Shown here piece by piece: positions 11,050-64,000 of a stretch of DNA of 64,000 nucleotides. The translations under genes and the position numbers were made by a program. The DNA is from an uncultured Candidatus Micrarchaeota archaeon. Its GTDB lineage: Archaea; Micrarchaeota; Micrarchaeia; Anstonellales; Bilamarchaeaceae. Below the pieces are notes generated by a model, which was not told where the DNA came from, ran no database searches, and saw only the letters and a program-made list of their open reading frames with translations. Positions within the stretch are counted from its first letter, which is position 1. Each line of letters starts with the position of its first letter. Where the stretch lies: the NCBI GenBank assembly GCA_903828955.1, contig CAIKOA010000014.1:6359-70358 (forward strand), written 5' to 3'.

Positions 11050-12279
11050 TCAATCATAACTAAGCGCTTCAATTGCGGGAATCTTTGATGCACTCCTTGC
11101 AGGAATCGCACCCGCAATAATTCCCACAACGGTTGCAAAAAGCACTGCTCCAGCCGCAACTTCGATTTTCAGGTACGGGGTGAGGCTTACAATATGCGGG
11201 ATAATCTGTATCACAATGATCCCGAGCAATAGCCCCGCAAGCCCCCCGATCATCCCGATCATTCCCGCTTCCACAATAAAGAGGGCAAGCACCTGCGTGG
11301 AAGTTGCGCCTATTGATTTCAGTATCCCGATTTCCTTGGTGCGCTCAATAACGGTCATGAACATGGTATTTGCAATCCCTATTCCGCCAACAAGCGCGGA
11401 GATCAGCCCTATCAGGAGCAGGGCCATCGTAAGAGTATCCGATATCGAACTTATGTTTTGCCTTGTTGAAGTAGATGCGGTGGTTACCGTGAAATCCGGA
11501 TTGTCCACATCCACTCCGCGCGCAAGCGCAAGTGTTTGGGTTATCGCAGTGCCGACAGTGCTGCTGTCAACTCCGGCCTTCACCTTGACCGTTATCTGCC
11601 CGATTTCGTTTTTCCCGAGGTCTTTCCCAAAAAGGCTGTCCTTCTCCGAATAGGGGACGTATATCGCCCTGTCCCCTCCTCCGGACATCGTGTTCCCGCT
11701 TTGTGCAAGGATTCCGATTACTCTGTATTTTTCCCCATTTATCAGGATGTAGCTGTTTATCCCCACCTTATCCGACCCGAACATCCCGTTTGCAACCCCA
11801 TAACCGATTACCGCAACCTTCTGGTCTGAATTCTGCAGATATCTTCCCTCACTAAGCGCATAGGTTTCCGGGAACAATGCGAACAGGTTGTCCTCAACCG
11901 CGGTAATGCTGGCCTTATATTCCTTCTTTGCAAACCCTATCGTTTCCCTCTCAGAAACAGACATCGCAGTCCCAACAATGTCCATTATTCCCTTTATCCG
12001 CGTCGCATCCTTCTCGTGCAGCTTCCCATAATCCGCGCCCGTCTCCACATCCGGCCCCATCGCGCGCCCGCCCCCCGGAGTAATCAGTATGGTGTCAGCG
12101 CCAAGGGAATTCAGGTTTGAATTTATCTGCTGCCCAACCCCTTCCCCTATCGAAACAAGAACGACAATCGTGGCTATCCCTAACAATATTCCGATAACGG
12201 TAAGCCAGGAGCGCAGCTTCCTCCTTTTCAGGTTCTGCAGGCAATACCCAAAAACATCCCTTGAGCGCATATCACTCAT
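11050..12279 (-). CDS. ABC transporter permease, MacB/FtsX family
   Basis: N-terminal TM, large periplasmic-type domain and C-terminal FtsX-like 3-TM bundle. It lies in an operon with the ATPase at 15393..16145. Confidence 0.8.
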   Translation of the reverse strand: MSDMRSRDVFGYCLQNLKRRKLRSWLTVIGILLGIATIVVLVSIGEGVGQQINSNLNSLGADTILITPGGGRAMGPDVETGADYGKLHEKDATRIKGIMDIVGTAMSVSERETIGFAKKEYKASITAVEDNLFALFPETYALSEGRYLQNSDQKVAVIGYGVANGMFGSDKVGINSYILINGEKYRVIGILAQSGNTMSGGGDRAIYVPYSEKDSLFGKDLGKNEIGQITVKVKAGVDSSTVGTAITQTLALARGVDVDNPDFTVTTASTSTRQNISSISDTLTMALLLIGLISALVGGIGIANTMFMTVIERTKEIGILKSIGATSTQVLALFIVEAGMIGMIGGLAGLLLGIIVIQIIPHIVSLTPYLKIEVAAGAVLFATVVGIIAGAIPARSASKIPAIEALSYD

Positions 12280-13492
12280 ACCTCAGTGCTTCCACGGCGG
12301 GCACCTTTGTTGCCTGCTCGGCCGGGTAAGTCCCTGCAACTATCCCTATTCCAACCGAAACCGCAAACGAAAGCCCCACCATGAACGCGGAGATTAATCC
12401 TGCGTATCCGAAAGTGGCAGCAATCTGGATGAAGACCCATCCTGCGGCTATCCCGAGAATTCCTCCGGAAAGGCCGATCATTGCGGATTCCATCAGGAAC
12501 ATGTTCCTTATCTGGGAAGAGGTTGCCCCAATCGCCTTCAGCACCCCTATTTCCCTTGTTCGCTCAAGCACGCTCATGAACATCGTATTCGAAATCCCTA
12601 TCCCGCCAACGATGAGTGAGATTGCGGAAACAAGCCCAAGAAATATTGTAAGAGTCCCCATGATCGCCGCTCTTTGCTCTTCCATGAATGTCGGGCTCAT
12701 CACCATGAAATCCTGGTCATCCGCGGTTACCTGGTGCGCCTGCTGGAGCGTCCATGTTATGTCCTCGGTCACCGTGGTGAGGTTGTATCCCTTTGCCATC
12801 TTCGCCTGGATGCGCGTCACTTCGTCATTTGCAAGGTCGGTTCCTGCAAGGGCGCGCGCATCATCTATAGGGAGATATGCCCTGCCCCCAAAGCCTCCTC
12901 CCCCGAACCCTCCGTTGTCTTCTGCGAGTATCCCAATTACGCGGTATGCCTTCCCGTCCAGATCTATCCTTGAATTCACCTTGACCTTTCCATTGAAGGT
13001 CCGGTCAACCACGCTGCTGCTAAGGAGGACGACCCCCCTGTCGCCTTTTTCAAGGTACCTGCCTTCGGAAAGGTTTCCAAGGGTGTTTGTTTTCAGGTAA
13101 GTTTCGGTGTCAACTCCAGTTATGGTCATTTTGGAAGTTTTGTCCCGATAAGCCACATCCACACTTACGCTGATAGAGGGCGAAACTGTCTCCACCCCAT
13201 TTACGCCCTTCACTATTTCAACATCCTTCATGTAGAGCTTGTCTGCGGATGAAGACCCTCCCTCTTCCCCAGGCGGCCCCCGCATTGCAGTACCGCCCGG
13301 GCTTATCGTGATTATGTCTGAACCCAGTTGGCTCAGCCTTGCATCTATGCTGGAACTGAGGCCGTCCACAAGCCCCACCAACAATATCACTGAGGAGATG
13401 CCGACCACTATCCCAAGCAGAGTAAGCCAGGTGCGCAGCCCCCTATGCCGCAGGTGGTGAAGCGCATATCCGAAAAGGTCCGGGAAGTTCAT
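12272..13492 (-). CDS. ABC transporter permease, MacB/FtsX family (paralog)
   Basis: Paralog of the adjacent permease. The start is placed at MNFPDLFGYALHHL by alignment with its partner; the ORF is open to 13552. Confidence 0.75.
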   Translation of the reverse strand: MNFPDLFGYALHHLRHRGLRTWLTLLGIVVGISSVILLVGLVDGLSSSIDARLSQLGSDIITISPGGTAMRGPPGEEGGSSSADKLYMKDVEIVKGVNGVETVSPSISVSVDVAYRDKTSKMTITGVDTETYLKTNTLGNLSEGRYLEKGDRGVVLLSSSVVDRTFNGKVKVNSRIDLDGKAYRVIGILAEDNGGFGGGGFGGRAYLPIDDARALAGTDLANDEVTRIQAKMAKGYNLTTVTEDITWTLQQAHQVTADDQDFMVMSPTFMEEQRAAIMGTLTIFLGLVSAISLIVGGIGISNTMFMSVLERTREIGVLKAIGATSSQIRNMFLMESAMIGLSGGILGIAAGWVFIQIAATFGYAGLISAFMVGLSFAVSVGIGIVAGTYPAEQATKVPAVEALRYE

Positions 13493-13573
13493 TTTATTTC
13501 CTCCACCTGAACCATCCGTAGATGGCATTGATGGGGGTAAATTCCCCTCCAAGGGCCATCACATCATATTCAG

Positions 13574-13834
13574 TCATTGCTTCTTACCTTGCTTCCTCAG
13601 GTCAAACCACCATATTAACACTGCGAGGATTGCAAGCCCGATTCCAATCTCCAATAGCGGCAGCCCTCCGCCGCCCATCGCGCCCCTTGAAAAACCTCCG
13701 GTTGCATTGCTGGTTGCATTGCTGCCCCCGCCAGAATACCCTCCTCTTCCGCCCATCGGCCCGAGCAGCGCAAAGGAAAGCCCCAATGCCGCAATTCCAA
13801 TAAGTAATCCTTTTATGTTTGCAAAACGTTTCAT
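13574..13834 (-). CDS. Small two-TM membrane protein with Gly-rich loops
   Basis: ORF track. Hydrophobic N- and C-terminal segments flank GGRGGYSGGG; it overlaps the upstream gene by 4 nt. Confidence 0.45.
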   Translation of the reverse strand: MKRFANIKGLLIGIAALGLSFALLGPMGGRGGYSGGGSNATSNATGGFSRGAMGGGGLPLLEIGIGLAILAVLIWWFDLRKQGKKQ

Positions 13835-15360
13835 TTTCTCACCTCAACAACCTGCTTCTTCCCTCCCTTCCATCTCTTCCAGAGCAGGTATGCCGCTCCA
13901 CCCACAACAACGGTGCCCGCAATTACCAGGTAGTTCAGCCCGGAATTCCGCTGCGTATCCGAAGTCATTGCCCTCCCGCTTATCGTAATGGGTATCTGCC
14001 TCTTCACAGTCATCCATTTCCCTGACGCGTCCCTGAAAGAGACCGTCACGTTTGCAGGGTATTCCCCTGCCCGCACCTGGTTCACCGTAATGTCATACTG
14101 CACGCTGCTAAAATCGTCGCTGTCCAGCTCCCCAATGAACTGCTCGGGCTGGATCGTGTCAAGCGTAAATGCCTCGCTATCTACCCGTACCGTAGTTCCC
14201 TGGATGTTGTAATTGCCGAGGTTGGAAACGGTTACTGAAAGCGTGTTGTCCGCACCTGCGGTGAGCGGGTTGGTTTTTGCTTCCAGGTAAATTCCGACAC
14301 TTGAATCCGAAACAATCTCTACAGGAAGTGTTACGGTTGCCACCTGGTTTTCCCCGTTCTCTTCCCAGCTCAGCTCAACTGCTATGTTGTGCGTCCCGGG
14401 CTCAACATTGGCCTTTACCGGCACCGAGAAAGTTTTTGCTTCCCCGCCCGCGAGGTCACCTACCTTATATTCGTTCATCCCGATGAGGTAGGTGTCGTTT
14501 GTACCAAAGGAGAACCTCAGGTTGGATATGTCGTTTCCCTCGTTTGTGAGGTTGAGCGAGAGCCGGTCATTTTGCCCGCTCACTATGGGCGCGTTCTGGA
14601 CGAATACGAAATTCCCTTCGGATTTCTTTATCGTGACCGGAACTTCGACCACCTCGCTAATCGTTGTCCCGAGTTCATTCTGGTAAGAAAGCTGGAACTG
14701 CAGCTTGGTTGCCCCTTCCTTTGCCGCCCTTGCATCAATCGTTGCAGGGACCGTTGCCGATGCCGAAGCGTCAACAGAATCCACGTAGAGCTTGCCGGAA
14801 TTGAGGAAGCCCACATCCGGGTTCAGGAGGGTCACCTCTACTCTCCTTGCGCTGCCCCCGTCGTTTTTCAGGGAGAAGTTCACTTCGCTGATGTCTTCGA
14901 TGCTGTCCTTGGAAAGCGAGATGGACAGTACCGGCTGCTTCACGATCTGCACCGGAATTGAGGCGCTCTTCTCAAAGGTTTCTGTTTTGGAAGCAAGCTG
15001 GTTGTTGCTGTCCAGATAGTAACTCTCACCCGTTCCGGTTGCGCGCACTTCCACGGTATAAAATCCGTTGGATATGTTTTCAGATGCTGCAAAAGGGAGC
15101 GAGATTACCGTGGAAGCCCCGGATTCCAGGTCCCCGACCGCGAAGGTGCGGTCTATCCCCAATGCCTCTACGGATGAAACGGCTATGGCCACGCTTCTTA
15201 CGGTGTCGGTCTGCACTCCGGTATTCGTTATTGTAATCTGCAGCACCCCGGAGCCTCCCGGCTCGACCACTTCAGGGGAAAGTGTATACTTGTCTATGCT
15301 TAAGCCCGCAAAGCAAAATCCAAACAGCAAAAGCGCCATGAGCGCATACTTCATATCCAT
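13831..15360 (-). CDS. Secreted CARDB-like/COG1361 repeat protein with C-terminal TM anchor (partner of archaeal MacB-type ABC systems)
   Basis: Signal peptide, repeated beta-rich modules (..VSVTVSNLGNYNIQG.., ..LQITITNTG..) and a C-terminal hydrophobic helix plus KRWKGGKK tail. Confidence 0.65.
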   Translation of the reverse strand: MDMKYALMALLLFGFCFAGLSIDKYTLSPEVVEPGGSGVLQITITNTGVQTDTVRSVAIAVSSVEALGIDRTFAVGDLESGASTVISLPFAASENISNGFYTVEVRATGTGESYYLDSNNQLASKTETFEKSASIPVQIVKQPVLSISLSKDSIEDISEVNFSLKNDGGSARRVEVTLLNPDVGFLNSGKLYVDSVDASASATVPATIDARAAKEGATKLQFQLSYQNELGTTISEVVEVPVTIKKSEGNFVFVQNAPIVSGQNDRLSLNLTNEGNDISNLRFSFGTNDTYLIGMNEYKVGDLAGGEAKTFSVPVKANVEPGTHNIAVELSWEENGENQVATVTLPVEIVSDSSVGIYLEAKTNPLTAGADNTLSVTVSNLGNYNIQGTTVRVDSEAFTLDTIQPEQFIGELDSDDFSSVQYDITVNQVRAGEYPANVTVSFRDASGKWMTVKRQIPITISGRAMTSDTQRNSGLNYLVIAGTVVVGGAAYLLWKRWKGGKKQVVEVRK

Positions 15361-18871: not shown

Positions 18872-18885
18872 CCGCTCTAGAGCGG
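18872..18885. promoter_or_regulatory. Perfect 14-bp palindrome CCGCTCTAGAGCGG, 38 nt upstream of the ATG of gene 18924; putative operator upstream of the TATA-like ACATATACAAG
   Basis: Seen directly. The same palindrome and the same 38-nt spacing recur at 19435-19448. Confidence 0.6.
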
Positions 18886-19434: not shown

Positions 19435-19448
19435 CCGCTCTAGAGCGG
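19435..19448. promoter_or_regulatory. Second copy of palindrome CCGCTCTAGAGCGG, 38 nt upstream of the ATG at 19487, followed by CACTAAGAATATCTATAAGTT
   Basis: Seen directly. The downstream 38 nt align with the copy at 18886-18923 (CA.TA...A.AT.TA.AAGTT...A.AA.T.TTAT.CC). Confidence 0.6.
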
Positions 19449-19486
19449 CACTAAGAATATCTATAAGTTATTACAAGTATTTATCC

Positions 19487-21096: not shown

Positions 21097-22695
21097 ATGA
21101 ATTCCCAGAACTACGAAGTCCTGAATAGGGCGTGGAAATCCACCTGCAAGGTGCTCTTTGGCGCGGAAATCGGCGACATGAAGGAATACGAGCCCTGGCT
21201 CCTTTCCGGAGTGGACGCCCCCATGAAGAAGAAATCCGCGGTTTCCGGCAAAGATGTTTATGTGGGAATTGAGTTCTACAAGGATGAAAGCAGGTTCATA
21301 GGGCTGGATGAGATTGATTTCAATAAGAAATTCCAGCCCCTCAACATAAACGAGGTTAAAGACATCGACAGCATCGTTGAATCATTGCAGGAAAGGTTCC
21401 TCTACACCGGAAACATCGTCCTTGGAAATTCCCAATTCGTAGAAAAAAGCTCGAACGTAATCGATAGCTCATACATTTACAATGCAACCGAGCTCGTTGA
21501 TGCGAAATACATCGCCCACCTCACCTGCGCCCCTGAAAGCGAATACTGCTTTGGCTCGAATGGCGCAGGGGTGAGCAAGCAGTGCATCCACATATACGAA
21601 ACATTCGACTGCAACCGCTGCTTAGAAATCTGGAATTCGAGAAGCTGCGCAGACGGCTACTTCACCTACAACTGCGACGGGTGCAGGGAAACCTTCTTCA
21701 CGTTCAATTCCTACGGAAAAAAGTACTCTGTCGGAAATCTCGAACTTGACAAGGACAAGTACCTCCAATTGAAGAAGAAACTAATAGAAGAAATCCGGGA
21801 AGAGCTCGTTTCCAAAAAACAGCTCAAATCTCTAATGGACATCATTTCCTCGGCAAAGGAATACAGGAAAGAGAACGAGGAGCTCAAGCAGATTCTGAAG
21901 GGGCACAAGTTCGAAGAGCCCCGCGCAAACAAGGAACTGGTCGAAAAGGAGTTTTCGGAAACCGCCGCGATTCTTTTCGGAAAGCCGTTGCACGGAATCG
22001 ACAACTATTCCAGATGGCTGAGCCGCAACATCTGGGAGCGCAATGAATGCAAGTCCGCCCTCACCGGGAGAAGGACCGTGGTTGTGGATTACTGCAACCT
22101 TGGAAGGATTCCGGAGCCGCGCCTGATCCGTAAAGACGAGTGGGAAGTGGTAAAAGAGAAAATGAAATTGAGCGCAGAGGACGTTGATTCCCTCACCCTG
22201 AAGAATGCCGGGGAAACAATAGGGAAAATCTCCTACCTTCCCTTCGACTACAATACGAACAGCACGAACATGATTGATTGCACGACCACCCTCAATTCCG
22301 CGGACTGTTATCTTGTGTTGCCTGCGATATTCTCAAAGAAATCCGGGGTTTGCACCTGGATAAGGCATTCCTCGGATGTATTCGGCTGCTGCGCGGGATT
22401 CCATTCCTCCTTCTGCATGAAAATCAACTACTCCAAGAAGATGAACCGCTGTTTCGAAACCGATAATTCCAGCGGATGCTCCGGGGGCTACTTCCTGCAC
22501 AACTGCGAGAACGTGAACGATTCCATGTTCTGCTTCAATATGAAGAACCTCCGGAACGCAATCGGGAACGCCCCTCTCCAGCTGGATAAATACAAGGCGG
22601 TAAAGTCTTCCCTCCTTGAGCAGATGCATTCCGAACTCGAGAGAAACAAGGAGCTCAAATGGGACATTTACAACATCGGATGCCTTTCAGAGTAG
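21097..22695 (+). CDS. Uncharacterised Cys-rich protein, paralog B (tandem duplicate of 19487..21094)
   Basis: It is clearly alignable to paralog A along its full length (MN.Q.Y..LN.AWKST..VL.G.E.G...EY..WL..., LNINE(I/V)KDIDSIVE(A/S)LQERF, C-terminal SSLLEQ...ELE..K.L..DIY.IG). Confidence 0.7.
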   Translation: MNSQNYEVLNRAWKSTCKVLFGAEIGDMKEYEPWLLSGVDAPMKKKSAVSGKDVYVGIEFYKDESRFIGLDEIDFNKKFQPLNINEVKDIDSIVESLQERFLYTGNIVLGNSQFVEKSSNVIDSSYIYNATELVDAKYIAHLTCAPESEYCFGSNGAGVSKQCIHIYETFDCNRCLEIWNSRSCADGYFTYNCDGCRETFFTFNSYGKKYSVGNLELDKDKYLQLKKKLIEEIREELVSKKQLKSLMDIISSAKEYRKENEELKQILKGHKFEEPRANKELVEKEFSETAAILFGKPLHGIDNYSRWLSRNIWERNECKSALTGRRTVVVDYCNLGRIPEPRLIRKDEWEVVKEKMKLSAEDVDSLTLKNAGETIGKISYLPFDYNTNSTNMIDCTTTLNSADCYLVLPAIFSKKSGVCTWIRHSSDVFGCCAGFHSSFCMKINYSKKMNRCFETDNSSGCSGGYFLHNCENVNDSMFCFNMKNLRNAIGNAPLQLDKYKAVKSSLLEQMHSELERNKELKWDIYNIGCLSE

Positions 22696-24690
22696 TATTT
22701 GCCCCCTCTTCATTTTTTTTACCGGGCTCTTCTCTTCCTTCTCAAGCTTGCTTGCGCTCGCCTTGTCAATTATGGATTCAGGAAGGCTGAGCCTTTCCTT
22801 GAATGGAGAAGCAACCTCTCCTCCATCTCCTCCATCTGGATCCTCACCAGGCCCGTCTCCCGGCCCCTTTCCCTTTTCTCCAGAAGGCGAAGGAGGGGGT
22901 TCCGGAGGAACATAAACCGGAAGCGCATTCTCGTCGAACCCCCACTTCTTCATGTCCACAACCTTGAGTTTCATCGGAAGGAGGTAATTCACCCCATCGT
23001 AGAGCCTTGCAATGCACTCCCGCTGGTTGAGCCGGACAAACATCTCTTTCTTGGATTCCTCCAGCTCGGTCTGCCCGCGGTGCTTCTTGAAGTATTCCTC
23101 CAGCTTAATCTCCATCACCGAACTCAGGAGCGCCGCATCCTGCCGATTCAACTTGAACGCAACAATGTTCCTCACGTTCGAAACCATGCTATCCACGATC
23201 TCCTTGCTCAATTGGGAGAGGTACTGGCACGAGAAGTACGCGTATAGGTTGAACTTCCTGGTCTCGGAAAGGATGTCCCTTGCCACCTTGGTCTCAATCC
23301 TTGGGAACTCATCCATCACAAGTATGGTAGGCTTATCCATGAGCTTCCCGCTGATTGCAAGCAGGTACATCTGGTTTATGATCGCCCCGGAAAGGAAGCT
23401 TATCATCCTCCTTCCGAAGAACTTCGGGTCGAAGGACACAACCGTAATCCTGTTCTTCTGAATCAATTCCAGGAGGTTCTCCTGCTTCTTCTCCTTCCCA
23501 AGGTATAACTGGTATTCCCCGATGAAGTTCAATATCGGCAATATCGCGGTATTGAAGTGGTGTATGTAGATGTCATTGTACTCCTCATCGAAGAACCTCT
23601 TCACCTCATCGTTGTCGCACATGCTGACGAATTCCGCCTTTACCGTAGCATCCGTAAGCAAAGAGCTGATGTTCGTAAGTTCGAGCTTGTCTATTGAACT
23701 CAGGAGGTGCACCGCGTAGAACAGCACACGCTCCGAGTACTTGTTCTCCTGCCCAATCGAAGAGGCAAGCAATTGCGAAACCAGCTGCGTAAGCATCGGA
23801 GTCTTCTCCTTGCCCACATCCAGCGGCTCCACGAAATTGGTCACGAAGTTGACGAGCTTAGCCTTAGGGAAAAGGCGCACGAACTCTCCGTGCGGGTCGA
23901 TTATGAGTATCCTTGCCCCTTCCTTGTATTTCTGCTCAATCGCCTTCAACATGACGTATAACGCCTTGCTCTTTCCGGAACCCGAAGTTCCCACCACAAG
24001 GGTGTGCTGGAGAGAATCGAAATTATCCACTCCCATGCTAAAGCCGGTATCTTCGAAAACGGGAAAATTGGAGGTTGTCTGTATCCTTTTCGGCAGTGGG
24101 TCAAGCACCTCGATGTATACAGACGGGTTCTCCTCCAAATTTACCCTAAAAAACTTATGCGGCTCGGTAACCAATACCGCCCTTTTCCTGCCCTTCTCAT
24201 CCGTGGCTGACCCTACTGCCACAAAGCCCCCGAGAAACTTGGTGAAGCCCAGGTCGAGCTCCTCCATGTTTTCCTTGAGCATGAAATCCAGGAAATCGTA
24301 GCTGCCTCCCCCTATCTTATAGAACTTTGAGAGGGGCGTTCCCACCGCTTCCTGGAGGTCCATCTTCTTCGCATCCCCGAACCTGAAGGGGAAAACGAGC
24401 GCGGACTGGCTCTGGAGGTGCTTCCTCTCCTCTATGAAGAAGGATACGGTATTGTTCTTCCTCTTTACAATGAGCCTGAACGCATTCGGGGAAAACACCG
24501 AAGAAAAATCCAGGAACCCCAGAATAGGAACCCTGGGCTTTGCCATCTGGTTGAAGAAAGCCAGTATGTCCTCGGGCTCGACCTTCTCAGAATAGAGGAA
24601 CATCTCCCTTGCCGAGAGGGGCCCCCCAGTGAGGGTTTCATCCCTTGTAAGGGAAATCTTCATCCCGATTGGAAGCTTTATTTCTGCCAT
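22687..24690 (-). CDS. HerA/FtsK-superfamily P-loop ATPase (COG0433/DUF87-like) with C-terminal Pro/Gly/Asp-rich low-complexity tail
   Basis: Walker A VVGTSGSGKSKA, Walker B ILVMDEFPR. The ~230-aa N-terminal region may be a HAS-barrel. The 3' end overlaps paralog B convergently by 9 nt. Confidence 0.7.
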   Translation of the reverse strand: MAEIKLPIGMKISLTRDETLTGGPLSAREMFLYSEKVEPEDILAFFNQMAKPRVPILGFLDFSSVFSPNAFRLIVKRKNNTVSFFIEERKHLQSQSALVFPFRFGDAKKMDLQEAVGTPLSKFYKIGGGSYDFLDFMLKENMEELDLGFTKFLGGFVAVGSATDEKGRKRAVLVTEPHKFFRVNLEENPSVYIEVLDPLPKRIQTTSNFPVFEDTGFSMGVDNFDSLQHTLVVGTSGSGKSKALYVMLKAIEQKYKEGARILIIDPHGEFVRLFPKAKLVNFVTNFVEPLDVGKEKTPMLTQLVSQLLASSIGQENKYSERVLFYAVHLLSSIDKLELTNISSLLTDATVKAEFVSMCDNDEVKRFFDEEYNDIYIHHFNTAILPILNFIGEYQLYLGKEKKQENLLELIQKNRITVVSFDPKFFGRRMISFLSGAIINQMYLLAISGKLMDKPTILVMDEFPRIETKVARDILSETRKFNLYAYFSCQYLSQLSKEIVDSMVSNVRNIVAFKLNRQDAALLSSVMEIKLEEYFKKHRGQTELEESKKEMFVRLNQRECIARLYDGVNYLLPMKLKVVDMKKWGFDENALPVYVPPEPPPSPSGEKGKGPGDGPGEDPDGGDGGEVASPFKERLSLPESIIDKASASKLEKEEKSPVKKMKRGQILL

Positions 24691-24748
24691 TTTGACCCAC
24701 CTTTAAGCACAATCTATTACTAAGCGCCACTTGGATATATTCTTAGTG

Positions 24749-24762
24749 CCGGTGTAGAGCGG
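24749..24762. promoter_or_regulatory. Degenerate third copy of the palindrome (minus-strand reading CCGCTCTACACCGG) followed by CACTAAGAATATATCCAAG, ~58 nt upstream of the ATPase ATG at 24690
   Basis: Seen directly. The 3' half-site and downstream CACTAAGAATAT are identical to the 19435 copy. Confidence 0.5.
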
Positions 24763-24821
24763 TCTTTTGAAACTTCCACAAGCAAACATTTAAAAACACT
24801 ATCATTGATAATATATATTAT

Positions 24822-26420
24822 ATGTCCACCGAGGGAAGGAAACCAGGCATACCTTCGTTTTTGCTTTCACCCCCCAGCTGGAAGGCCGTCGGAAACACCC
24901 CCCTTATCAAGGTAAAAGAGCTTTGCGGGGCGTGCAACGGGGCGACCGTCTATGTGAAGGACGAGAGCAAGAACCGCTTCGGAACCTTCAAGGACAGGCG
25001 CTCGGCAGCCCTTTTTGAGCACTACAAGGACAAATCCGAGATCGTTTTCGTCCACATCACTTCCGGAAACTCCGGCTACAGCCTCGGGATGATGGCCGAG
25101 GAGGAGCGGAGAAGGACCAAAAAAGACATACGGGTAGTCAACATCATCGATAAGGGAACTCCGAAAACCATCCGCGAAAGGCTGGAATCATGTTCAAAGG
25201 TCGTTGAGATGGACCTCTCAAGCGGGCAGATGGGGCTTGATGAGCAGAGGGAGCTCGGGAGGTCCGCAGCGTCTTATGAGGGCCACCAGAGCAACATCGT
25301 CGGGGTGGAGGAATACCACATTGCAAACGGCTACAGCAACATACTGCGTGAGATTTATGCCGAAGGGATAAGGCCAAAATACGTCTTTTGCCCGGTCGGA
25401 AACGGGGAGCTCCTGGTTGAACTTGCGGATGTCGCAAAGGAATTGTGGGGTTACGACGCCCCATTAATCGTCGGAGTTACTATTCAGCAGAACATCCTGC
25501 ACCGCGCAGCGGACTTTGTCTCAAAAATAGGGAGGAGCATCGCAGACAAGCTCGTTGCCCCATACTCAATGTACAAGGAACTCGTGGAGGCCCGCGTGAA
25601 AGATGGAAGCGCGGAATTGATGAAGAAACACCCGAAAGAGGACGAAATCGCAAAGGAATACGAACGCCTCAACCGGATAGGCATAAATGTGGAGCCTTCC
25701 GCGGCGGTCGCCTTCTGGGGCGCAAAACACTACGAACTCACCCAAGACGATACAGTCGTAATCATTAATACTGGTAAGGGAGTTTACGACCCTTCCTCGC
25801 TCAATAAGGTCTGGAAGTACATGCTGAAGCCCAGATTGAAGAAGCTGGGGCTGGTTGCGGCAGGTGCGCTCCTCTCCCTAGGAATAGTGTTCGGAAACAA
25901 TCAATATGAAAAATACAAATCCCATGAGCACTTCAACCTTGCTACTCAGGTATCGCTTATTTCCGAAACCGGAGGCTTTTTCCGCACGGATGTGAAGAAA
26001 TTGCAAACATTGTGCATGAACATCCCGGATATGACTAAGGAGAGGTGCGGAGAAATTCGTTCCGCGTCCGACTTAACCGATAGGGAGCTCCAGTTCCTTA
26101 TCTACTGGGACGGGCTCAAAGATGACAATGCGAACATGGGGCTCCGCCTCATGGCAAGAGAGTGGTACCTCAAATATAATGGGCAGGGCCCGGATCGCCG
26201 CAAGGCTTGGATGCCATTAGATGATAACGAGCCGGAAGAATACGAAATGTACCCTGATGGTTCCATAAAACAGGCATCAAGAAAAACAACCTTTGATTTC
26301 ATGTCGGGCAGGGAAAGGCACGAATACACGTTTGGGCCAACTCCTCCCCCATCCATGACCGGCTACCCATGGGGCTCTGATACAGGCCCTGGCAATCCTG
26401 CTTCTGCCCCTAATAAGTAG
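24822..26420 (+). CDS. Fold-type II PLP-dependent enzyme domain (cysteine synthase/threonine synthase-like) fused to a TM segment and a ~170-aa C-terminal domain of unknown function
   Basis: GNTPLIKV and TFKDRRS (PLP lysine) motifs and ITSGNSGYSLG glycine loop. Then KLGLVAAGALLSLGIVFG as a TM helix, then an unrecognised domain. Confidence 0.65.
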   Translation: MSTEGRKPGIPSFLLSPPSWKAVGNTPLIKVKELCGACNGATVYVKDESKNRFGTFKDRRSAALFEHYKDKSEIVFVHITSGNSGYSLGMMAEEERRRTKKDIRVVNIIDKGTPKTIRERLESCSKVVEMDLSSGQMGLDEQRELGRSAASYEGHQSNIVGVEEYHIANGYSNILREIYAEGIRPKYVFCPVGNGELLVELADVAKELWGYDAPLIVGVTIQQNILHRAADFVSKIGRSIADKLVAPYSMYKELVEARVKDGSAELMKKHPKEDEIAKEYERLNRIGINVEPSAAVAFWGAKHYELTQDDTVVIINTGKGVYDPSSLNKVWKYMLKPRLKKLGLVAAGALLSLGIVFGNNQYEKYKSHEHFNLATQVSLISETGGFFRTDVKKLQTLCMNIPDMTKERCGEIRSASDLTDRELQFLIYWDGLKDDNANMGLRLMAREWYLKYNGQGPDRRKAWMPLDDNEPEEYEMYPDGSIKQASRKTTFDFMSGRERHEYTFGPTPPPSMTGYPWGSDTGPGNPASAPNK

Positions 26421-57820: not shown

Positions 57821-60800
57821 CTAAAACCGATATCCCCCAAAGAGGATGAAACCCCCATAAATCTCTTTTGTCCTGCTCGTATCAAGTTGCCCGAGCCGGT
57901 CCCTGAACACTCTCTCGATGCTTCCGACTACTCCTTTTCCCCCAAGGTACCAGTCTTCATTGCTGGAAGTGGTCCGGACCTCTACCCCGCCCTGGTCAGT
58001 AGTCTCTTCGTAGTGGGTAATGGCGCTTCCTCTTTCCCTGGCCATCATTTCCCTTCTAAGATACTCGAGATCGACAGTAAAGGTAACTCCGGAGTGCCCT
58101 ACCCACATCAGCCTGAGGCCCGGGCTATACCTGATTGTGTCAAGGTCCTCTACCATTTGGTAAGTATTTGTCCCGAGCTCTTTTGAGAGCGCCAGATACG
58201 GTTGCACACGGCCTGGATAAGGGGCTCCCTTCCACCACGGCGTCCAGCCAAGAACCATGGCTTCGTAAACATTTCTCGTGACGTCAACTTTAGCGGTGCT
58301 GGCCCCAGGTTCCAACATTCCAGTAACGCTGCTGGATCCCGTGCCGGTAGGATATTCCGTGCCGGTAGGATATTCCGTAGTCCCGGTAGGCTTATACTCC
58401 AATGTTCCGCTGCGCCACATGCCGCCGACTATCGCCCCGATTCCCCAATCGTTCTCGGGAAGAGTCACGAATCCCACATCGAAATTCGGCAATCCCTTGG
58501 TGCTCCTTAAATCCTTTCTCCAATATTCCCCTGCCGCAAGCGCGAGTATGACGTGCGTTAATGGAACGACTACTTTCCCCCCTGCGGAGCCCCAGGGCGC
58601 AGGCTGGATGTTGAACGAGAGCGCGAATGCCCGGTCAACCTCGACATATGAGTTAATCAGTGCGCTCCACTGGGCAGGCCCGCCCCATATCGCTTCAATC
58701 CCCGCCCTTGTCGTCTTATCCAGCGAGTTCCATTCTATTCCCGCGGTTCCAAAGTAACTTTGCACTTCAATGAGCCCAAGTGCGGTCTGCATCGTCCGCA
58801 GAAGGGTCTGCTTTCTTTCCAGCTCGGTTATTGCCTGGCTCCTGGACATCGCCTGGTCCAGCCTCCCCGAATAAATAAGCTCGTCACTCTGCCTGCTCGC
58901 GCGGAGGTCCTGCAAGTCAGCCTCCACTCCGCGCAGTTCTGAGACCACTTTCTTCAGGCTCCACTGTGTTTCCATCAGCTGCCAGAGGCTGCTTCCCTGG
59001 AATCTTCCACTGTTCCATTCTGTCGCGCCAAGAACTCCCGCACTGCTTACCTGGCCGCTTCTTTCAGCCGCTCTTTCCGAGAGCTGCCTCCAGTCCCCGA
59101 CAAGGAACGCATCGATTATTCCCGGATCCCTATACATCGTGCCAAGCAAGCCGGAATTGCTCTCATCACTGCGTATCTGCGCCATTGCAAGGGTGTAGAG
59201 CTCATTTCCCCCTGGAAGCGCGGGAACATTTGCCCCCTGCCATGCAAAAGTGTATTCCATTGCACTGTCTATCCAGGATTTCTCGGCTGCAAAACCAACC
59301 TCTGCCCCCCTTTCCCCTATTTTTATCTTTCCGACCCTGTCCACTGTTCCGCCGCCCCAGAACTTTTCCGTTTTTCCTGCGGGGGCTTCTCCAGGCGTTG
59401 TTTCCCCTATGGTAGAAGTGGCGGAACCCCTTTGGCTCTCATCAGTTTTTACTTCCCTCCCAACAAGGGTGACGAATCCTACCGCATTCTTCATGCCTAA
59501 GAAACCTTTCTCGAAAAGGACGCTTATCCCTCCAGCATATTCCTTTGCTATCCTTTGTGCATCCCCTTCTTGCACCACCTTCCCCTGTTCATCCACCTGT
59601 TCCCCTCTTTCAAGGGTTGGCAGCGGCTCCAGGAGATTCGTCCTTGAAATGGAAGGCCTTCCTCCGGCGTTATATAGCGTCGCCCCAACCACTGAAGGCG
59701 AAGCCGGCGGAGGAGCCCCTCCTGTGAATAAATTTGTGAAATTCACCCCTATCAGGCAGCCGTACATATGCCAATTCTGCTCAGCGCCCGGAACCTCCGC
59801 ATTTGTTCCCGCTGCCTGCTCAACGCCCGAAACTTCATTAGGAGCTCCTCCCACTTTATACTTCTGCTTTCCAAAGAGCCCCCTGACGCTCCCGTACTGT
59901 TCACCAGGCCCTATCTGGAATCCGGTGAATAGCCTTTGGACCTGCTCAGGGTCAAGGTCTATGTATCCAATCCTGTACCAGTCGCCCTTGATCCTTCCCC
60001 AGGTATACGCCCGTAACTCTTTCTCCGTAGGAATATTCTCTTCTGTTGTTGTAACCCCCGCCGTGGTAGTTTTTGTGACGTCTTCCTGCTCCTTTGCAAC
60101 TATCAGGGTTACCCCATCGGTATTGTGTTCCCGGGCATAATGCTCCAGCTGCGCCGTGATATTCTTATCGCTGACTTTTTGGTATGTTCCCTCTTCCCCA
60201 TGATAAATAAACGGCACGGGCTCTTGTAGCGGGTATTTTTTCTTTGTCGACCCCGGGGGCACACCCGGCTGAACAGTAGTAGGGGTCACACCCGGCTCAA
60301 TAGGAGGAGGGGGCACAATATCTGCAGGGGTTTTTGTTTCGCTTGTAGTTTCACCCCAGGTGCCGTTGACGCTTCCCGTAAACGAAACCCATCCGGGATA
60401 ATTTAAATCATTGAAAAGCGCATTGACACCCTGCCTTTCCTGCGTTGTCATTGTTTGCTCTGGAGGAGTGTATGTCTGTTCTGCGCCCTCGCCTTCCCAT
60501 CTTCCCTCAGCATTAGACTCGGTTGTCCCGGTTGTCACCGTATGAGCTCCGGCCGCCTTTGTCACCGGGCCGAACGCATATATTCTTTCAGTGCCCGTAT
60601 ATTTTGACGCGCTCTCGCTTCCTGTTTCATCCTCTACCGATTGTGCAGAGCCAGAGCCTCTTGCGTCAACCCCGGCGCGCTCTAGCCCCATGCCAGGCAC
60701 GTACCTTGGATATGGCACATCGGAGAGCAGTTCAAACAGCCTGCTGAGAGAGCCCGGGATGAAGCTGTTTACCCCATAGGTCCTCTCCGGAAGCAGTTTC

Positions 60801-63800
60801 GCCTTTTTTGGGCTGAAGAAATCAAAGAAATACTCGTGCAGGGAAGGCTCCCTGTTCCAGAGCGTTGCAAGCTCCGGGGGTGCAGAGGTCCTTATGTCTT
60901 CAAAGATCTGGTTCGCCTCAGCCTGATAATTCGCGTTGTCTTCGGATAGGGAGCCAAATCCAGACCTCGCTAAGCGGGCAAGGTCATATGCCCGCCTGTC
61001 CATTGCATCGGTTATGGCCGCGTCCTGGGGAGCCCTGTATATGGGTATCTCACCAGGGCGGATTGCGCCGCTCTTTCTTGAATATGTGTGCATGTAAGTC
61101 CTGAGTATTTCACCTATCGTCCTTGCTGCAAACATGCTCTTTTCCATGTTTGTCCCTTCATAGAGAATGGGGTTTAGCGTAAGCATGTCCTCAAGGACCC
61201 TCAGGTTCTCATTAAGCGCGTTTGCAAAAGCCAGGGGAACTACCACCATCATGTAGTCGGATAGCACCCTTCCTGAACCTATTTCCAGGTATGCGTTGCG
61301 GTTCGAAATCATGTTGGCAGTGGTATTTATCTTATTCAATATTGAAATTGCTTCCTGGTAGGAAGTTGCGGTTTCCAGTGCGAGCGGAACCGCATTCAGC
61401 ATGTACCCCAGGTGCCCGCCCCTGCCCATGTTCAGCAGTTGCGTCGATACGACATCCATAATCTGCTGAGCCGCCACTCCTTTATACCTTTGGTCGGTTT
61501 CGGTGTTTGCAATCTCAACCGTCCCGTCCACCGGCTTGGTGGTGTCAGTTAGCTGAAGCTCAAGATTGGTGCTCTTAAATGCCTTCCAGGTTACCGTGCA
61601 GAATGCACGCTGGGAAAGAAGGTCCATCTTTGAAAGGAAGGCTCTTGGCGCCTCCGAAAGCTTCCCGGTGGTTTGTTCCCTTTCGTTCTCCGGTTTCATC
61701 AGGTCGACAAGCTCATTAAGGTCATTCCTGCCCTCCATCTGGCTTATGAAATCCAGTTTCGCGTCTCTGAAATCATAGTTCTCCAGGGCATACTTGTGCA
61801 GCATGGCAAGCTTCACGATGCTCCTCGTTTCTGCGATAAAGCCGTCTCGCTCTCCGGGTGGAACTGCATAGTTGTGTTGCATCGACCCGACCGGAGCGAA
61901 GTCAAGCGTTGCCATCGCGCTCCAGTTGTATCCAAATACGGAATCAATCACATGCTGCGTAAGCGCGGCGTTTTTCCAAAGTATTTCTGCGATTTGGAAT
62001 ACTCCTGCTTCCATTCCGGAGCCAGCGTACTTCGCCCTCAGAGTTTCAAGCTCTGCCTTGTCCTTTGCGCCCACAACCTCCAGGAAAACATCCTGAAGGT
62101 GCGCGTTCCAGACCGAAGGGTCAACGCTTGAAGAGCGCTCTATGTATCCGTTGAAAGCCGCGATGACTTCGGCTATCGCTTTCTTCATTCTTTCAACATC
62201 AAACCCATCCGGCCCGACGAATTCTCCCATCACAAGCAGGAGCCTCATCACATTGTCGGCGCCTCCCAATTCAGGAGGTATGTTAAAATCTATATTGTGG
62301 TCCCTGAAAAACTGGTTCATGTCCCCAAGTGTGACCTTGCTGGCCGCCTTCTCTATTATCGCTCTCCTCTCTTCTTCGCTTATCCCTTTTCCCGCCTCTT
62401 CTATCAGGCGGTTTGCTTCCTCAGGGCTCTTGCCTTTTGCTTCTTCAACTGCATTCTCCATAAGCTTCCTGTTTCTTTGCTGTATCTGGAAAAACGGCCC
62501 ATTCTCCTTCTTTCCTTTGCCAAGGAGCTTGTCCAGCTCGTCCATCATGTATTTCTTGAACGAACTCAGCTGGTCCGAAGGTATGTTATCATAAGCAGAA
62601 AAGCCTTCACTCAGGCCCCCGCCATTTCTTGAAAGTGTATCCATGTTCATGAGCACATTGAACATGTATTTCATCTGCTTCTGGCCCTCATCCTGCTTCT
62701 CTTCTGAAACAGGCGCTTCCGCCCTTGCGCTCGCCTCTCTCTTGGCCTGGGCCTGCTTTGCCCTGGCCTCGGCCTGCCGCACGAATACGTCCAGATTGAA
62801 ACTAGCCCACAGCGCCCTCCCGCTGGCGTCCCCGTTCTTCTCAACTATTCCTTCCACTGCCTTCTTCAGGTCGCTATAATAGAGCTGCTCCTTCTTGCTC
62901 CAATTGCCGGTTTTTTTGCTGAGAATGTCCACCAGTGCAGCATTTACCCCGTTTGCGCTTATCAGGTTGTTTTTCATCAGCCAGTCCAGCTTCCACAGGG
63001 ATTCTATGAGCTTGGCATCGTCTCTTACATAACCAACCTCCTTAGAGTCCTTTCCGTAAGAAGGCATTATGTGCTCCCTTATCCCGTCCATCACTTCATA
63101 CTGTGCGCGCACGTCCCCCAGGCCTTCAACCCCCCTGGAAGCATCCATAACCGTCGTTATGAAAGAATCAAGGCTGAGAGCGGACCATAGCTTTTTCTTT
63201 GCACCTTCAGACATTCCCTCTATTGCTTCCTTCAGGCCCCAGTAGTAGCGTTGATCCGTATCTATCCATCCTGCCGTGTTCCCTTTGAGTATGTCAACAA
63301 TTGCCGCCTTAACTTCGTTTGTGCCTACCTTGCCTTTCCTTGCCCAGTAGTCTATCTCCCACAGCTTCTTTACCAGCTCAGGATCGCTCCTAACGAAGCC
63401 TTCGTAATCAGGATTTTCATAACAGGAAATGATTCGTTTTCTTATGTCCCCCATGAAAGGCTTCCAGTCGGCTACCTGCATCGCATCCAATAATTCTTTC
63501 ATATTGGTTATGCCGAGTTCATCTCTCCAGTAGTCTGGGCCTTCCTTTGCTTCGAGTTCAGGCTGCGCAGGCTTCGGAACCGTTTCTCCAAAACCTGGCG
63601 CAGGCCCTAACTTCTCCCCTGCCCTTATCGCCTTTGCATCTTCCGTGACCTTTGCCTCCATTGCAACATTTACGATTTCCGAGTTTATCTCTGCTATTTT
63701 TTCAGGGAAATACACGAAATTCCCTTTCCTGTCCCTCAGCGCCATGGTAAGCAGGCTTTGCACAAAAGGGTCTTGGAGAACTTTTGAAAGGTCTCCCCCC

Positions 63801-64000
63801 GCATTGGAGGAAATCATCTCGAACATTTTCAGGATTGTGGAGTATCTCGAGGCATCGGCGCCTTTCGGCTCAATGCAGACCGCGATGTCTGAAGCACAAT
63901 TGAGCGCATGGCGCGCATGGTCTATTTTTTTCGTATTCGCTTCAGGTGCAAACGCCTTCACGTTGTCAACCATCGGGTGTTCTGATTGCCCCTTGCGCAC
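57821..64000 (-). CDS. Giant protein (>2059 aa, N-terminus beyond window end) of unknown function with internal ~95-aa repeats and a TEYPTG tandem repeat
   Basis: A single uninterrupted ORF of 6.18 kb reaches the window edge; no catalytic motif recognised. Confidence 0.7.
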   Translation of the reverse strand: MRKGQSEHPMVDNVKAFAPEANTKKIDHARHALNCASDIAVCIEPKGADASRYSTILKMFEMISSNAGGDLSKVLQDPFVQSLLTMALRDRKGNFVYFPEKIAEINSEIVNVAMEAKVTEDAKAIRAGEKLGPAPGFGETVPKPAQPELEAKEGPDYWRDELGITNMKELLDAMQVADWKPFMGDIRKRIISCYENPDYEGFVRSDPELVKKLWEIDYWARKGKVGTNEVKAAIVDILKGNTAGWIDTDQRYYWGLKEAIEGMSEGAKKKLWSALSLDSFITTVMDASRGVEGLGDVRAQYEVMDGIREHIMPSYGKDSKEVGYVRDDAKLIESLWKLDWLMKNNLISANGVNAALVDILSKKTGNWSKKEQLYYSDLKKAVEGIVEKNGDASGRALWASFNLDVFVRQAEARAKQAQAKREASARAEAPVSEEKQDEGQKQMKYMFNVLMNMDTLSRNGGGLSEGFSAYDNIPSDQLSSFKKYMMDELDKLLGKGKKENGPFFQIQQRNRKLMENAVEEAKGKSPEEANRLIEEAGKGISEEERRAIIEKAASKVTLGDMNQFFRDHNIDFNIPPELGGADNVMRLLLVMGEFVGPDGFDVERMKKAIAEVIAAFNGYIERSSSVDPSVWNAHLQDVFLEVVGAKDKAELETLRAKYAGSGMEAGVFQIAEILWKNAALTQHVIDSVFGYNWSAMATLDFAPVGSMQHNYAVPPGERDGFIAETRSIVKLAMLHKYALENYDFRDAKLDFISQMEGRNDLNELVDLMKPENEREQTTGKLSEAPRAFLSKMDLLSQRAFCTVTWKAFKSTNLELQLTDTTKPVDGTVEIANTETDQRYKGVAAQQIMDVVSTQLLNMGRGGHLGYMLNAVPLALETATSYQEAISILNKINTTANMISNRNAYLEIGSGRVLSDYMMVVVPLAFANALNENLRVLEDMLTLNPILYEGTNMEKSMFAARTIGEILRTYMHTYSRKSGAIRPGEIPIYRAPQDAAITDAMDRRAYDLARLARSGFGSLSEDNANYQAEANQIFEDIRTSAPPELATLWNREPSLHEYFFDFFSPKKAKLLPERTYGVNSFIPGSLSRLFELLSDVPYPRYVPGMGLERAGVDARGSGSAQSVEDETGSESASKYTGTERIYAFGPVTKAAGAHTVTTGTTESNAEGRWEGEGAEQTYTPPEQTMTTQERQGVNALFNDLNYPGWVSFTGSVNGTWGETTSETKTPADIVPPPPIEPGVTPTTVQPGVPPGSTKKKYPLQEPVPFIYHGEEGTYQKVSDKNITAQLEHYAREHNTDGVTLIVAKEQEDVTKTTTAGVTTTEENIPTEKELRAYTWGRIKGDWYRIGYIDLDPEQVQRLFTGFQIGPGEQYGSVRGLFGKQKYKVGGAPNEVSGVEQAAGTNAEVPGAEQNWHMYGCLIGVNFTNLFTGGAPPPASPSVVGATLYNAGGRPSISRTNLLEPLPTLERGEQVDEQGKVVQEGDAQRIAKEYAGGISVLFEKGFLGMKNAVGFVTLVGREVKTDESQRGSATSTIGETTPGEAPAGKTEKFWGGGTVDRVGKIKIGERGAEVGFAAEKSWIDSAMEYTFAWQGANVPALPGGNELYTLAMAQIRSDESNSGLLGTMYRDPGIIDAFLVGDWRQLSERAAERSGQVSSAGVLGATEWNSGRFQGSSLWQLMETQWSLKKVVSELRGVEADLQDLRASRQSDELIYSGRLDQAMSRSQAITELERKQTLLRTMQTALGLIEVQSYFGTAGIEWNSLDKTTRAGIEAIWGGPAQWSALINSYVEVDRAFALSFNIQPAPWGSAGGKVVVPLTHVILALAAGEYWRKDLRSTKGLPNFDVGFVTLPENDWGIGAIVGGMWRSGTLEYKPTGTTEYPTGTEYPTGTGSSSVTGMLEPGASTAKVDVTRNVYEAMVLGWTPWWKGAPYPGRVQPYLALSKELGTNTYQMVEDLDTIRYSPGLRLMWVGHSGVTFTVDLEYLRREMMARERGSAITHYEETTDQGGVEVRTTSSNEDWYLGGKGVVGSIERVFRDRLGQLDTSRTKEIYGGFILFGGYRF

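Follow-up and report, generated by a model that had tools for sequence, protein, structure and literature searches.

A conserved gene module of an FtsK-HerA superfamily ATPase and a predicted beta-solenoid partner family in Micrarchaeota and bacteria

The described systems closest to the ATPase analysed here are the type IV coupling proteins (TrwB, VirD4, TraD), the complexes of HerA with a partner (HerA–NurA, Sir2–HerA, DUF4297–HerA), and the C-terminal HerA/FtsK-type domain of DndH. Long C-terminal tails are common in coupling proteins, and those that bind adaptors have a long disordered tail with a short motif. DndH, a protein of about 1700 amino acids (aa), combines nuclease, inactive methylase, and helicase-derived domains and belongs to the DndFGH defence operon (PMC10853773). 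We analysed a 64,000-nt stretch (the window) of contig CAIKOA010000014.1 from an uncultured Candidatus Micrarchaeota archaeon, which encodes an ATPase of the FtsK-HerA superfamily and, convergently, two paralogous proteins, parA and parB. The ATPase has intact catalytic motifs, its gene is linked to genes of the parA/parB family, homologs of this partner are linked to related ATPases in bacteria, and the operator shared by the ATPase and partner genes is conserved. Full-text searches of the literature retrieved no mention of the ATPase family in these organisms and no description of the family or its partner. The pairing is a new variant of the theme of a ring ATPase with a dedicated partner, and the module is previously undescribed.

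Related loci were collected by a scan of one genome per species with two peptide patterns, by which divergent Micrarchaeota may be missed. The scan yielded 79 loci, all from archaeal metagenome-assembled genomes (MAGs), mostly labelled Micrarchaeota or Micrarchaeia; no acidophilic Micrarchaeaceae are among its hits. Neighbours were identified by tblastn with the window proteins and by a simple caller of open reading frames (ORFs), on which the neighbourhood counts depend. At least 5 kb of sequence was available on both flanks of 44 loci; 39 of these have a partner-family gene within 10 kb of the ATPase gene, the nearest one being less than 1.5 kb away in 35 of the 39. Partner content per locus has a median of about 2.9 full-length equivalents and a maximum of about 9.6. 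Unbiased clustering of all ORFs from the 79 loci produced only four families present in at least 17 loci: the ATPase (73 loci, 77 genes), the partner (61 loci, 216 genes), a helix-turn-helix (HTH) regulator of about 240 aa (24 loci, 25 genes), and a PALP enzyme (17 loci, 20 genes); the next largest, an unannotated family of ~332-aa proteins, occurs in 13 loci.

The same pairing is found in bacteria, where 70 of 82 loci carry one homologous gene for a partner of ~232 aa. In all 71 measured cases this gene lies directly downstream of the ATPase gene on the same strand, typically with an overlap of 4 or 8 nt. The bacterial and Micrarchaeota partners are homologous and collinear by hhalign (probability 97.9%, E 3.6e-13, and 100%, E 4.5e-47): the bacterial protein corresponds to one half of a Micrarchaeota paralog, and each half of parA aligns to it. 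The median identity among bacterial partners is 44%, as compared to 27–40% for the ATPases, so that the partner is at least as conserved as the motor. The overlapping genes and the equal conservation point to subunits rather than to a motor and its cargo. The earlier note on this DNA had called the ATPase an orphan and had suggested checking whether its neighbourhood is conserved in related genomes; the neighbourhood is conserved in both domains, and the pair that the ATPase gene overlaps belongs to the very family that accompanies it, so that the gene is not an orphan.

Named bacterial members belong to Candidatus Saccharibacteria, Candidatus Shapirobacteria, and one Clostridiales MAG; since the latter is also a member, the idea that the module is specific to episymbionts of the Candidate Phyla Radiation (CPR) and DPANN was rejected. 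The only candidate in the transposon-sequencing study of Southlakia (PMC10633639), SEML1_0293, is a 921-aa coupling-protein-like protein followed by a GNAT acetyltransferase, not by a solenoid partner; its "non-essential" call is not transferable to the module. The bacterial ATPase genes have chromosomal neighbours such as dnaG, rpoD, polA, gatCAB, and uvrB. The uvrB gene is directly upstream of the ATPase gene in five Saccharibacteria-type loci (L080, L090, L091, L092, and L094), while PolA, RecA, UvrD, Fpg, UDG, and an alkylation-repair gene are neighbours in one case each. In L080 (7364–9966) and the four related loci, a SLOG (LDcluster4) gene and uvrB lie immediately before the ATPase gene in the same orientation, the gap in L080 being 35 nt; co-transcription of the ATPase with uvrB is possible.

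The partner proteins have no Pfam or NCBIfam match and no match in a sequence search of PDB, and members with any label are called "hypothetical" or "uncharacterised" only. In the window, parB begins 2 nt past the parA stop codon (an operon), and at locus L008 its ortholog, 80% identical, holds the same position beside an ATPase 75% identical to that of the window. The AlphaFold2 (AF2) model of parA (predicted local distance difference test score, pLDDT, 82; predicted template-modelling score 0.81) shows each half as helices followed by a beta-solenoid and a long helix, so that the arrangement is repeated twice; a repeat of roughly nine residues is visible on reading the sequences. The models of both the partner and the ATPase are of moderate confidence. 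The best Foldseek matches of parA, with E 0.29 against PDB and 1.5 against BFVD, are not significant, and both point toward left-handed beta-helices. Such proteins (hexapeptide acyltransferases, gamma-carbonic anhydrase, dynactin p27) are the only fold neighbours of the model and do not rise above chance (E at least 0.29); unlike them, the paralogs have no Hexapep Pfam match and no acyltransferase or metal-site residues, and they add an N-terminal helical part and a long C-terminal helix. The partner represents a new protein family, predicted to form a beta-solenoid, for which no Pfam, PDB, or viral relative was found.

Among the Micrarchaeota partner genes, 112 are fused and encode two units, while 91 are of half size, 43 of the N-type and 48 of the C-type; adjacent half-size genes are arranged in the order N–C in 40 pairs and C–N in 12. 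The existence of fused and split N/C pairs points to a dimeric unit. No membrane segments or signal peptides were found in the partner proteins. The Micrarchaeota paralogs end in a conserved ...DIYNIG motif and are rich in Cys (median 23). A conserved Cys or metal site was considered and rejected, as the Cys positions differ between units and lineages; given this variability, Cys probably occupies the small-residue ladder positions of the solenoid. A DNA-mimic solenoid, similar to pentapeptide-repeat proteins, was also rejected: bacterial partners are only mildly acidic (median isoelectric point, pI, 5.0), and the Micrarchaeota paralogs have pI 7.2. A phage link via PHROGs was not retained either, since parA has only a weak match to phrog_15341 (7.6e-6) and neither tblastn against phages nor the scan of IMG/VR or the fold search of BFVD gave a useful match.

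The earlier note had read Walker A and Walker B motifs and an N-terminal domain of ~230 aa from the ATPase sequence, and both readings stand. In an alignment of 28 homologs, G234, S236, G237, G239, and K240 of Walker A (GTSGSGKS) and D460 and E461 of Walker B (ILVMDE) are invariant; R478, K479, and Q489 are invariant as well. R478, in the sequence ETRKFN, and Q489 flank a strand predicted by AF2 (482–488) and fit the definition of the arginine finger and sensor 1, respectively, given in PMC10853773, an assignment that comes from the sequence pattern and the AF2 model, not from superposition. A DPHGEF motif is present after the P-loop strand. Judging from these motifs, the ATPase appears to be catalytically intact. 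The AF2 model has a mean pLDDT of 75. Of the ~230 residues before the P-loop, those at positions 25–175 are modelled, with moderate confidence, as a mixed alpha/beta domain; six helices (298–397) are predicted between Walker A and Walker B. The hydropathy maximum (19-residue window) is 1.5 and is located inside the nucleoside triphosphatase (NTPase) core. None of 77 ATPase homologs has a segment above 1.8, when a membrane anchor is sought by hydropathy.

The C-terminal tail (residues 592–667) has pLDDT below 50 and is predicted to be disordered; Pro, Gly, Asp, or Glu account for 49% of residues 591–667. The note had reported this composition correctly, while its description of the tail as unusual does not apply to the family: in the alignment, tail length varies from near zero to several hundred residues, tail sequence varies too, and Lys-rich tail ends are common. 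Given this variation, the tail is a trait of the family and not a peculiarity of the window gene. The closest relatives share, within an otherwise unalignable tail, the motif (L/F)P(E/D)P(M/I)(I/T)(D/E) (alignment columns about 795–800), whose counterpart in the window ATPase is LPESIID (residues about 640–650); it looks like a docking motif for some binding partner.

The 3' end of the ATPase gene overlaps parB convergently by 9 nt, as stated earlier: the parB stop codon TAG occupies 22693–22695 and the ATPase stop codon TGA, on the minus strand, 22687–22689. Just past the parB stop, inside the 3' coding end of the ATPase gene, lies the T-rich run CTTCATTTTTTTT, which encodes KKMK on the other strand and could be an archaeal oligo-T terminator of the paralog operon.

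Placement of the ATPase was assessed by profile, structure, and tree comparisons. Pfam identifies DUF87 (the HerA central domain, E 4.5e-12) and TrwB_AAD_bind (E 1.9e-9, 37.4 bits vs a cut-off of 20.5), the latter covering only residues 228–278. All NCBIfam equivalogs are far under their thresholds (21–34 bits vs 600–970): the canonical HerA model (helicase_HerA, NF040819) scores 21.4 bits vs 970 and matches only residues 218–291, CedD scores 34 vs 600, and the anti-phage HerA models (NF042943/NF042944; Sir2-HerA, DUF4297-HerA) score 23–24 vs 800–850. Similarity to characterised families is confined to ~70 residues around the P-loop, and PDB sequence searches agree with this. PADLOC reports mad8 (1.1e-11, residues 223–517), several HerA models (down to 2.8e-9), and the DndH and SspH models (residues 228–497). 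Foldseek of the ATPase model retrieves HerA, TrwB, the C-terminal domain of DndH (DndH-C), and HerA of Sir2-HerA with similar E (2e-12 to 1e-10), Sulfolobus HerA being the top match by E-value. TrwB and DndH-C superpose better (root-mean-square deviation, rmsd, 6–7 Å; target template-modelling score, TM-score, 0.5–0.62), with the highest target TM-score of all solved structures, 0.62, for DndH-C (PDB 7es4); the HerA alignments extend across the N-terminal region, but with rmsd of about 14 Å.

More than 120 homologs are 50–74% identical to the ATPase, the named ones labelled Micrarchaeota (DPANN archaea) or related archaeal MAGs; the gene is single-copy and kept at 47–75% identity across Micrarchaeota. 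A profile search of 1.8 billion representative proteins separated three groups: a tight Micrarchaeota set; 74 diverse representatives located in bacterial chromosomes (the bacterial group), 25–32% identical to the window ATPase and matched over nearly the full length; and more distant ATPases with an N-terminal DUF8128 domain in an apparently archaeal context. In a neighbour-joining tree (distance-based, with saturated distances), the Micrarchaeota ATPases are monophyletic, and together with the bacterial group they are split from the DUF8128 group, both in 100/100 bootstraps, while support for the bacterial group as a clade by itself is only 18/100. The mean distance is larger in the bacterial group (1.42 vs 0.63 in Micrarchaeota). 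An old bacterial origin of the archaeal module is compatible with these data but not proven. Members of the DUF8128 group (P0351, P0358, and others) are 700–900 aa long; one ATPase of this type adjoins a TrmB-family regulator, followed by a 298-aa protein with no recorded Pfam match. The most divergent member of the Micrarchaeota-like group, P0245 (34% identity; L086 991–6709), precedes a 1297-aa protein that matches no family and has no detectable similarity to the solenoid partners.

Taken as a whole, the ATPase represents a separate new family inside the known FtsK-HerA superfamily, with a TrwB/VirD4-like core. The note's assignment to HerA/FtsK-like ATPases is thus correct at the level of the superfamily, for a protein to which an N-terminal domain and a disordered tail are added, and incorrect if HerA is meant in the strict sense. 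It had named placement in the canonical HerA clade, with NurA encoded elsewhere, as a sign of ordinary end resection; in this reading, Mre11 and Rad50 would also be encoded elsewhere. The DUF87 match and the first rank of Sulfolobus HerA in Foldseek speak for such machinery; however, the helicase_HerA score and the short P-loop match speak against it, the family groups with its bacterial relatives in a clade of its own (100/100 bootstraps), and its conserved neighbour is a solenoid protein, never NurA. No NurA, Mre11, or Rad50 is present nearby, as the note had stated (16 window ORFs were scanned with Pfam, non-exhaustively), and none of the families that recur in the 79 Micrarchaeota or 82 bacterial loci is of this kind. 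These results contradict canonical end resection, which we consider extremely improbable.

The superfamily membership, the single-copy state, the high conservation, and the Lys-rich tail ends of many homologs, which could bind DNA, would also fit a housekeeping DNA translocase that acts alone, e.g., in FtsK-like chromosome segregation, the solenoid genes being mere neighbours or regulators. However, the FtsK_SpoIIIE score (21.8 bits) is under the Pfam cut-off of 24, and the protein has neither an N-terminal membrane segment nor any membrane domain. Moreover, a partner linkage that persists in both domains, with genes that overlap at their start and stop codons and with a shared operator, is hard to explain without a joint function, which makes a lone translocase very unlikely.

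The type IV coupling proteins resemble the ATPase in several respects. The helices that separate the two Walker motifs in its P-loop core form an insertion comparable to the all-alpha domain of these proteins; TrwB_AAD_bind is above the cut-off; TrwB is among the best-superposing solved structures; and the C-terminal tail is variable and disordered. In bacterial relatives, TrwB_AAD_bind spans the whole NTPase domain (214–513), with a weak match of TraG-D_C. In contrast to coupling proteins, a soluble alpha/beta domain of ~220 aa takes the place of the N-terminal transmembrane anchor; the genes are chromosomal and were not detected in plasmids or phages; neither relaxase nor type IV secretion genes are recurrent neighbours in the 79 archaeal or 82 bacterial loci; and the ATPase has a dedicated solenoid partner, none being known for coupling proteins.

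With this similarity in mind, the ATPase may be similar to a type IV coupling protein or to type VII EssC/EccC, with the solenoids as cargo for export or for surface or cytoskeletal assembly and the Micrarchaeota paralog array as a set of substrates. Besides the TrwB_AAD_bind and TraG-D_C matches and the fold of TrwB (target TM-score 0.5–0.6, with a much lower rmsd than HerA), this agrees with the diverged paralog arrays beside a single conserved motor, with the Cys-rich paralogs that lack signal peptides and end in a conserved motif, and with the long disordered tail with its short conserved motif. The lack of a membrane anchor speaks against it, as does the fact that no membrane or channel protein recurs in the 79 archaeal or 82 bacterial loci; the bacterial partner is encoded by one gene, apparently in translational coupling with the ATPase gene, and its conservation equals that of the motor, which are typical features of a subunit rather than of cargo. 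We, therefore, regard this explanation as possible but unlikely. Somewhat less probable still is its more specific form, a hitherto unrecognised ATP-driven machine in which a soluble coupling-protein-like ring would handle the solenoid proteins, exporting them or assembling them into a surface, cytoskeletal, or host-contact structure; the cargo would have expanded to as many as ten genes in Micrarchaeota (genomes of about 1 Mb) as central to symbiosis, while Saccharibacteria and other CPR bacteria would use an identical core.

The similarity to DndH is limited to its C-terminal domain, as seen from the TM-score and from the PADLOC DndH/SspH alignments; the nuclease, methylase, and helicase-derived domains of DndH and its operon have no counterpart here. 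The PADLOC matches (mad8, HerA models, DndH, SspH), together with the two-gene architecture of an ATPase and a partner and the dedicated regulator adjoining the module, could indicate an anti-virus system of the HerA-plus-effector type, such as Sir2-HerA or DUF4297-HerA, with the solenoid as a sensor or effector. The anti-phage HerA models of NCBIfam, however, score only about 24 bits against cut-offs of 800–850. The surroundings are of the housekeeping type (aminoacyl-tRNA synthetases, purA, prefoldin, and exosome genes in the window; dnaG, rpoD, gatCAB, and uvrB in bacteria), the ATPase is single-copy and steadily conserved across Micrarchaeota, and Pfam scans of the neighbours detect no nuclease, NADase, or other effector domain. 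The ATPase family is absent from the viral contigs of IMG/VR, and the partner family from the plasmid and phage collections. Matches of the ATPase to phrog_5156 and phrog_7035 (E about 1e-13) are to function-unknown entries. The housekeeping synteny, steady conservation, and lack of an effector domain make a defence role quite improbable.

The genes of the module share an operator. Exact copies of the palindrome CCGCTCTAGAGCGG are present at 18872 and 19435, and a copy with two mismatches, at 24749, precedes the ATPase gene, which thus has its own operator, as the earlier note had claimed. The window contains four matches, compared to 0.2 expected by chance; the fourth, at 53290 within a tRNA-synthetase gene, is probably a chance match. 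Downstream of the palindrome, ~20 further bases are common to the three copies of the cluster, including an AT-rich TATA-like segment. In general form the palindrome is CCGYTnnnnnRCGG next to a TATA box. It recurs before the ATPase gene and/or the first paralog gene in 17 loci, at about –60 relative to the ATPase start in 14 related loci and at about –52 relative to the first paralog gene in 14, and is followed after about 8 nt by GATATATA. Matches before the PALP gene are the same sites viewed from the divergent side.

Homologs of the HTH_10-family regulator of the window are encoded in 24 of the 79 loci, mostly 50–60 nt upstream of the first paralog gene and on the same strand, and loci that encode them tend to have the palindrome as well (odds ratio 10, Fisher p=0.0025). 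Given this co-occurrence, the HTH_10 protein is the likely operator-binding protein; it would bind the palindrome beside the B recognition element (BRE) and the TATA box and switch the ATPase gene and the partner operon together, by either activation or repression. About 18 bacterial loci have, directly upstream and on the same strand, an AraC-type regulator with a GyrI-like/Cass2 ligand-binding domain (e.g., L082 9087–9881, L085 767–1564, L115 7123–7917); a small-molecule-binding regulator in this position suggests induction by a chemical signal. Dedicated regulators have been acquired independently in archaea (HTH_10) and in bacteria (AraC/GyrI-like). The conserved palindrome and its probable HTH_10 regulator form an experimentally tractable archaeal regulon.

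Complexes of HerA with a partner share with the window system the Walker A and B motifs, DPHGEF, the ETRKFN arginine-finger region, and the sensor-1 Gln, as well as an extra N-terminal domain and a two-gene unit with a probably dimeric partner. They differ in that the ATPase is far under every HerA family cut-off, the partner is a novel predicted beta-solenoid without a nuclease or NADase domain, and the N-terminal domain of the ATPase is larger and, in the AF2 model, of mixed alpha/beta structure. We favour, with about an even chance of being right, an explanation in which the ATPase acts as the motor, and the solenoid family of parA and parB provides the second component, of a conserved two-component system that is under transcriptional regulation and possibly acts on DNA. 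Like TrwB/VirD4 and HerA, to which it is related, the ATPase would assemble into a hexameric ring, with which two ~232-aa solenoid units, paired as a dimer, would form a fixed complex, this stoichiometry being likewise conjectural. In bacteria the two units would be identical, and in Micrarchaeota an N-type and a C-type unit, either fused or encoded by separate genes, would make up a pseudo-dimer; the complex would resemble that of the NurA dimer or other partners on the HerA ring. Multiplication of the partner genes in Micrarchaeota would give rise to alternative complexes. Both promoters, with CCGYTnnnnnRCGG abutting the BRE/TATA of each, would probably be switched together by HTH_10. DNA is the most likely substrate, judging by analogy to the relatives and from the few DNA-repair neighbours; this is the weakest step.

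Several observations weigh against the motor–partner explanation. No partner lies within 10 kb of the ATPase gene in 5 of the 44 well-flanked Micrarchaeota loci, and the presence of 2 to about 10 partner paralogs in a reduced genome is not accounted for by a simple 6:2 complex. No catalytic or DNA-binding motif is recognisable in the partner, whose conserved residues seem to have structural roles, and the nearly neutral Micrarchaeota paralogs (median pI 7.2) give no support for a DNA-mimic role. DNA-repair neighbours are few, and the five uvrB cases probably represent one conserved synteny. Finally, a HAS barrel is not demonstrable in the N-terminal domain of the ATPase, which is modelled with moderate confidence.

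Signs of the importance of the pair to the cell are its retention in both bacteria and archaea, its tight regulation, and the amplification of the partner in Micrarchaeota. This amplification, to several kilobases of coding sequence in strongly reduced genomes (about 1 Mb), is also the most surprising feature. Elucidation of the function of the module would extend the repertoire of the HerA, FtsK, and VirD4 ring ATPases by a partner of a new type and could illuminate the cell biology, so far poorly understood, of DPANN archaea and of CPR bacteria.

The coordinates of the features discussed here and of other genes of the window are given in Table 1.

Table 1. Coordinates of the module, its regulatory sites, and other features in the window
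Feature	Position	Strand	Remarks
ATPase, 667 aa	22687..24690	–	FtsK-HerA superfamily; TrwB/VirD4-like core; no membrane anchor
Walker A, GTSGSGKS, residues 234–241 (G234–S241)	23968..23991	–	Alignment of homologs
Walker B, ILVMDE, residues 456–461 (I456–E461)	23308..23325	–	Alignment and AF2 strand 455–459
Putative arginine finger R478 (in ETRKFN) to sensor-1 Q489	23224..23259	–	Q489 at the end of the following strand
Predicted disordered C-terminal tail, residues 592–667 (76 aa)	22690..22917	–	P/G/D/E-rich, then a basic end
Paralog A (parA), 535 aa	19487..21094	+	Two fused units, predicted beta-solenoid
Paralog B (parB), 532 aa	21097..22695	+	41% identical to parA
T-rich run CTTCATTTTTTTT	22705..22722	+	Candidate terminator
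Operator copy 1, CCGCTCTAGAGCGG and AT-rich promoter segment	18868..18905	+	Upstream of orf166
Operator copy 2 and promoter	19435..19468	+	~39 nt before the start codon of parA
Operator copy 3 and promoter	24729..24766	–	~59 nt before the ATPase start; in the intergenic region between the divergent ATPase and PALP genes
HTH_10-family transcription regulator, 265 aa	18061..18858	+	Pfam HTH_10 E 8.9e-20, residues 204–255
orf166, 166 aa	18924..19424	+	Under operator copy 1
Pyridoxal phosphate-dependent enzyme (PALP fold)	24822..26420	+	Pfam PALP 1.4e-28; hydrophobic segment and C-terminal extension
MacB-like/FtsX permease gene	11050..13552	–	Tandem with the following
MacB-like/FtsX permease gene	13831..15360	–	
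ORF of more than 2059 codons (giant protein)	57821..64000	–	Runs past the window end

The window is an ordinary chromosomal region, with genes for aminoacyl-tRNA synthetases, ABCE1, SAH hydrolase, an adenylosuccinate-synthetase-like protein (purA), prefoldin, and the exosome. The orf166 product has no Pfam, NCBIfam, or PHROG match and no homolog in the 79 related loci; it contains an internal 66-nt direct repeat (76% identity), which encodes the repeated LKDYA..V/QLLLLAA. Possibly, orf166 arose recently in this lineage and was recruited to the regulon, or else it is not a real gene; its membership in the system is uncertain. The PALP gene, divergent from the ATPase gene, is adjacent to it in 14 of the 44 well-flanked loci and, since the two share the operator-bearing intergenic region, may be co-regulated. 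The fold of its product resembles threonine or cysteine synthase; the hydropathy maximum (1.79) is near residue 339, and the C-terminal extension is about 170 aa long. About 5 kb from the module, the two permease genes adjoin a gene for a CARDB-domain protein, with which they possibly form a surface or export cluster.

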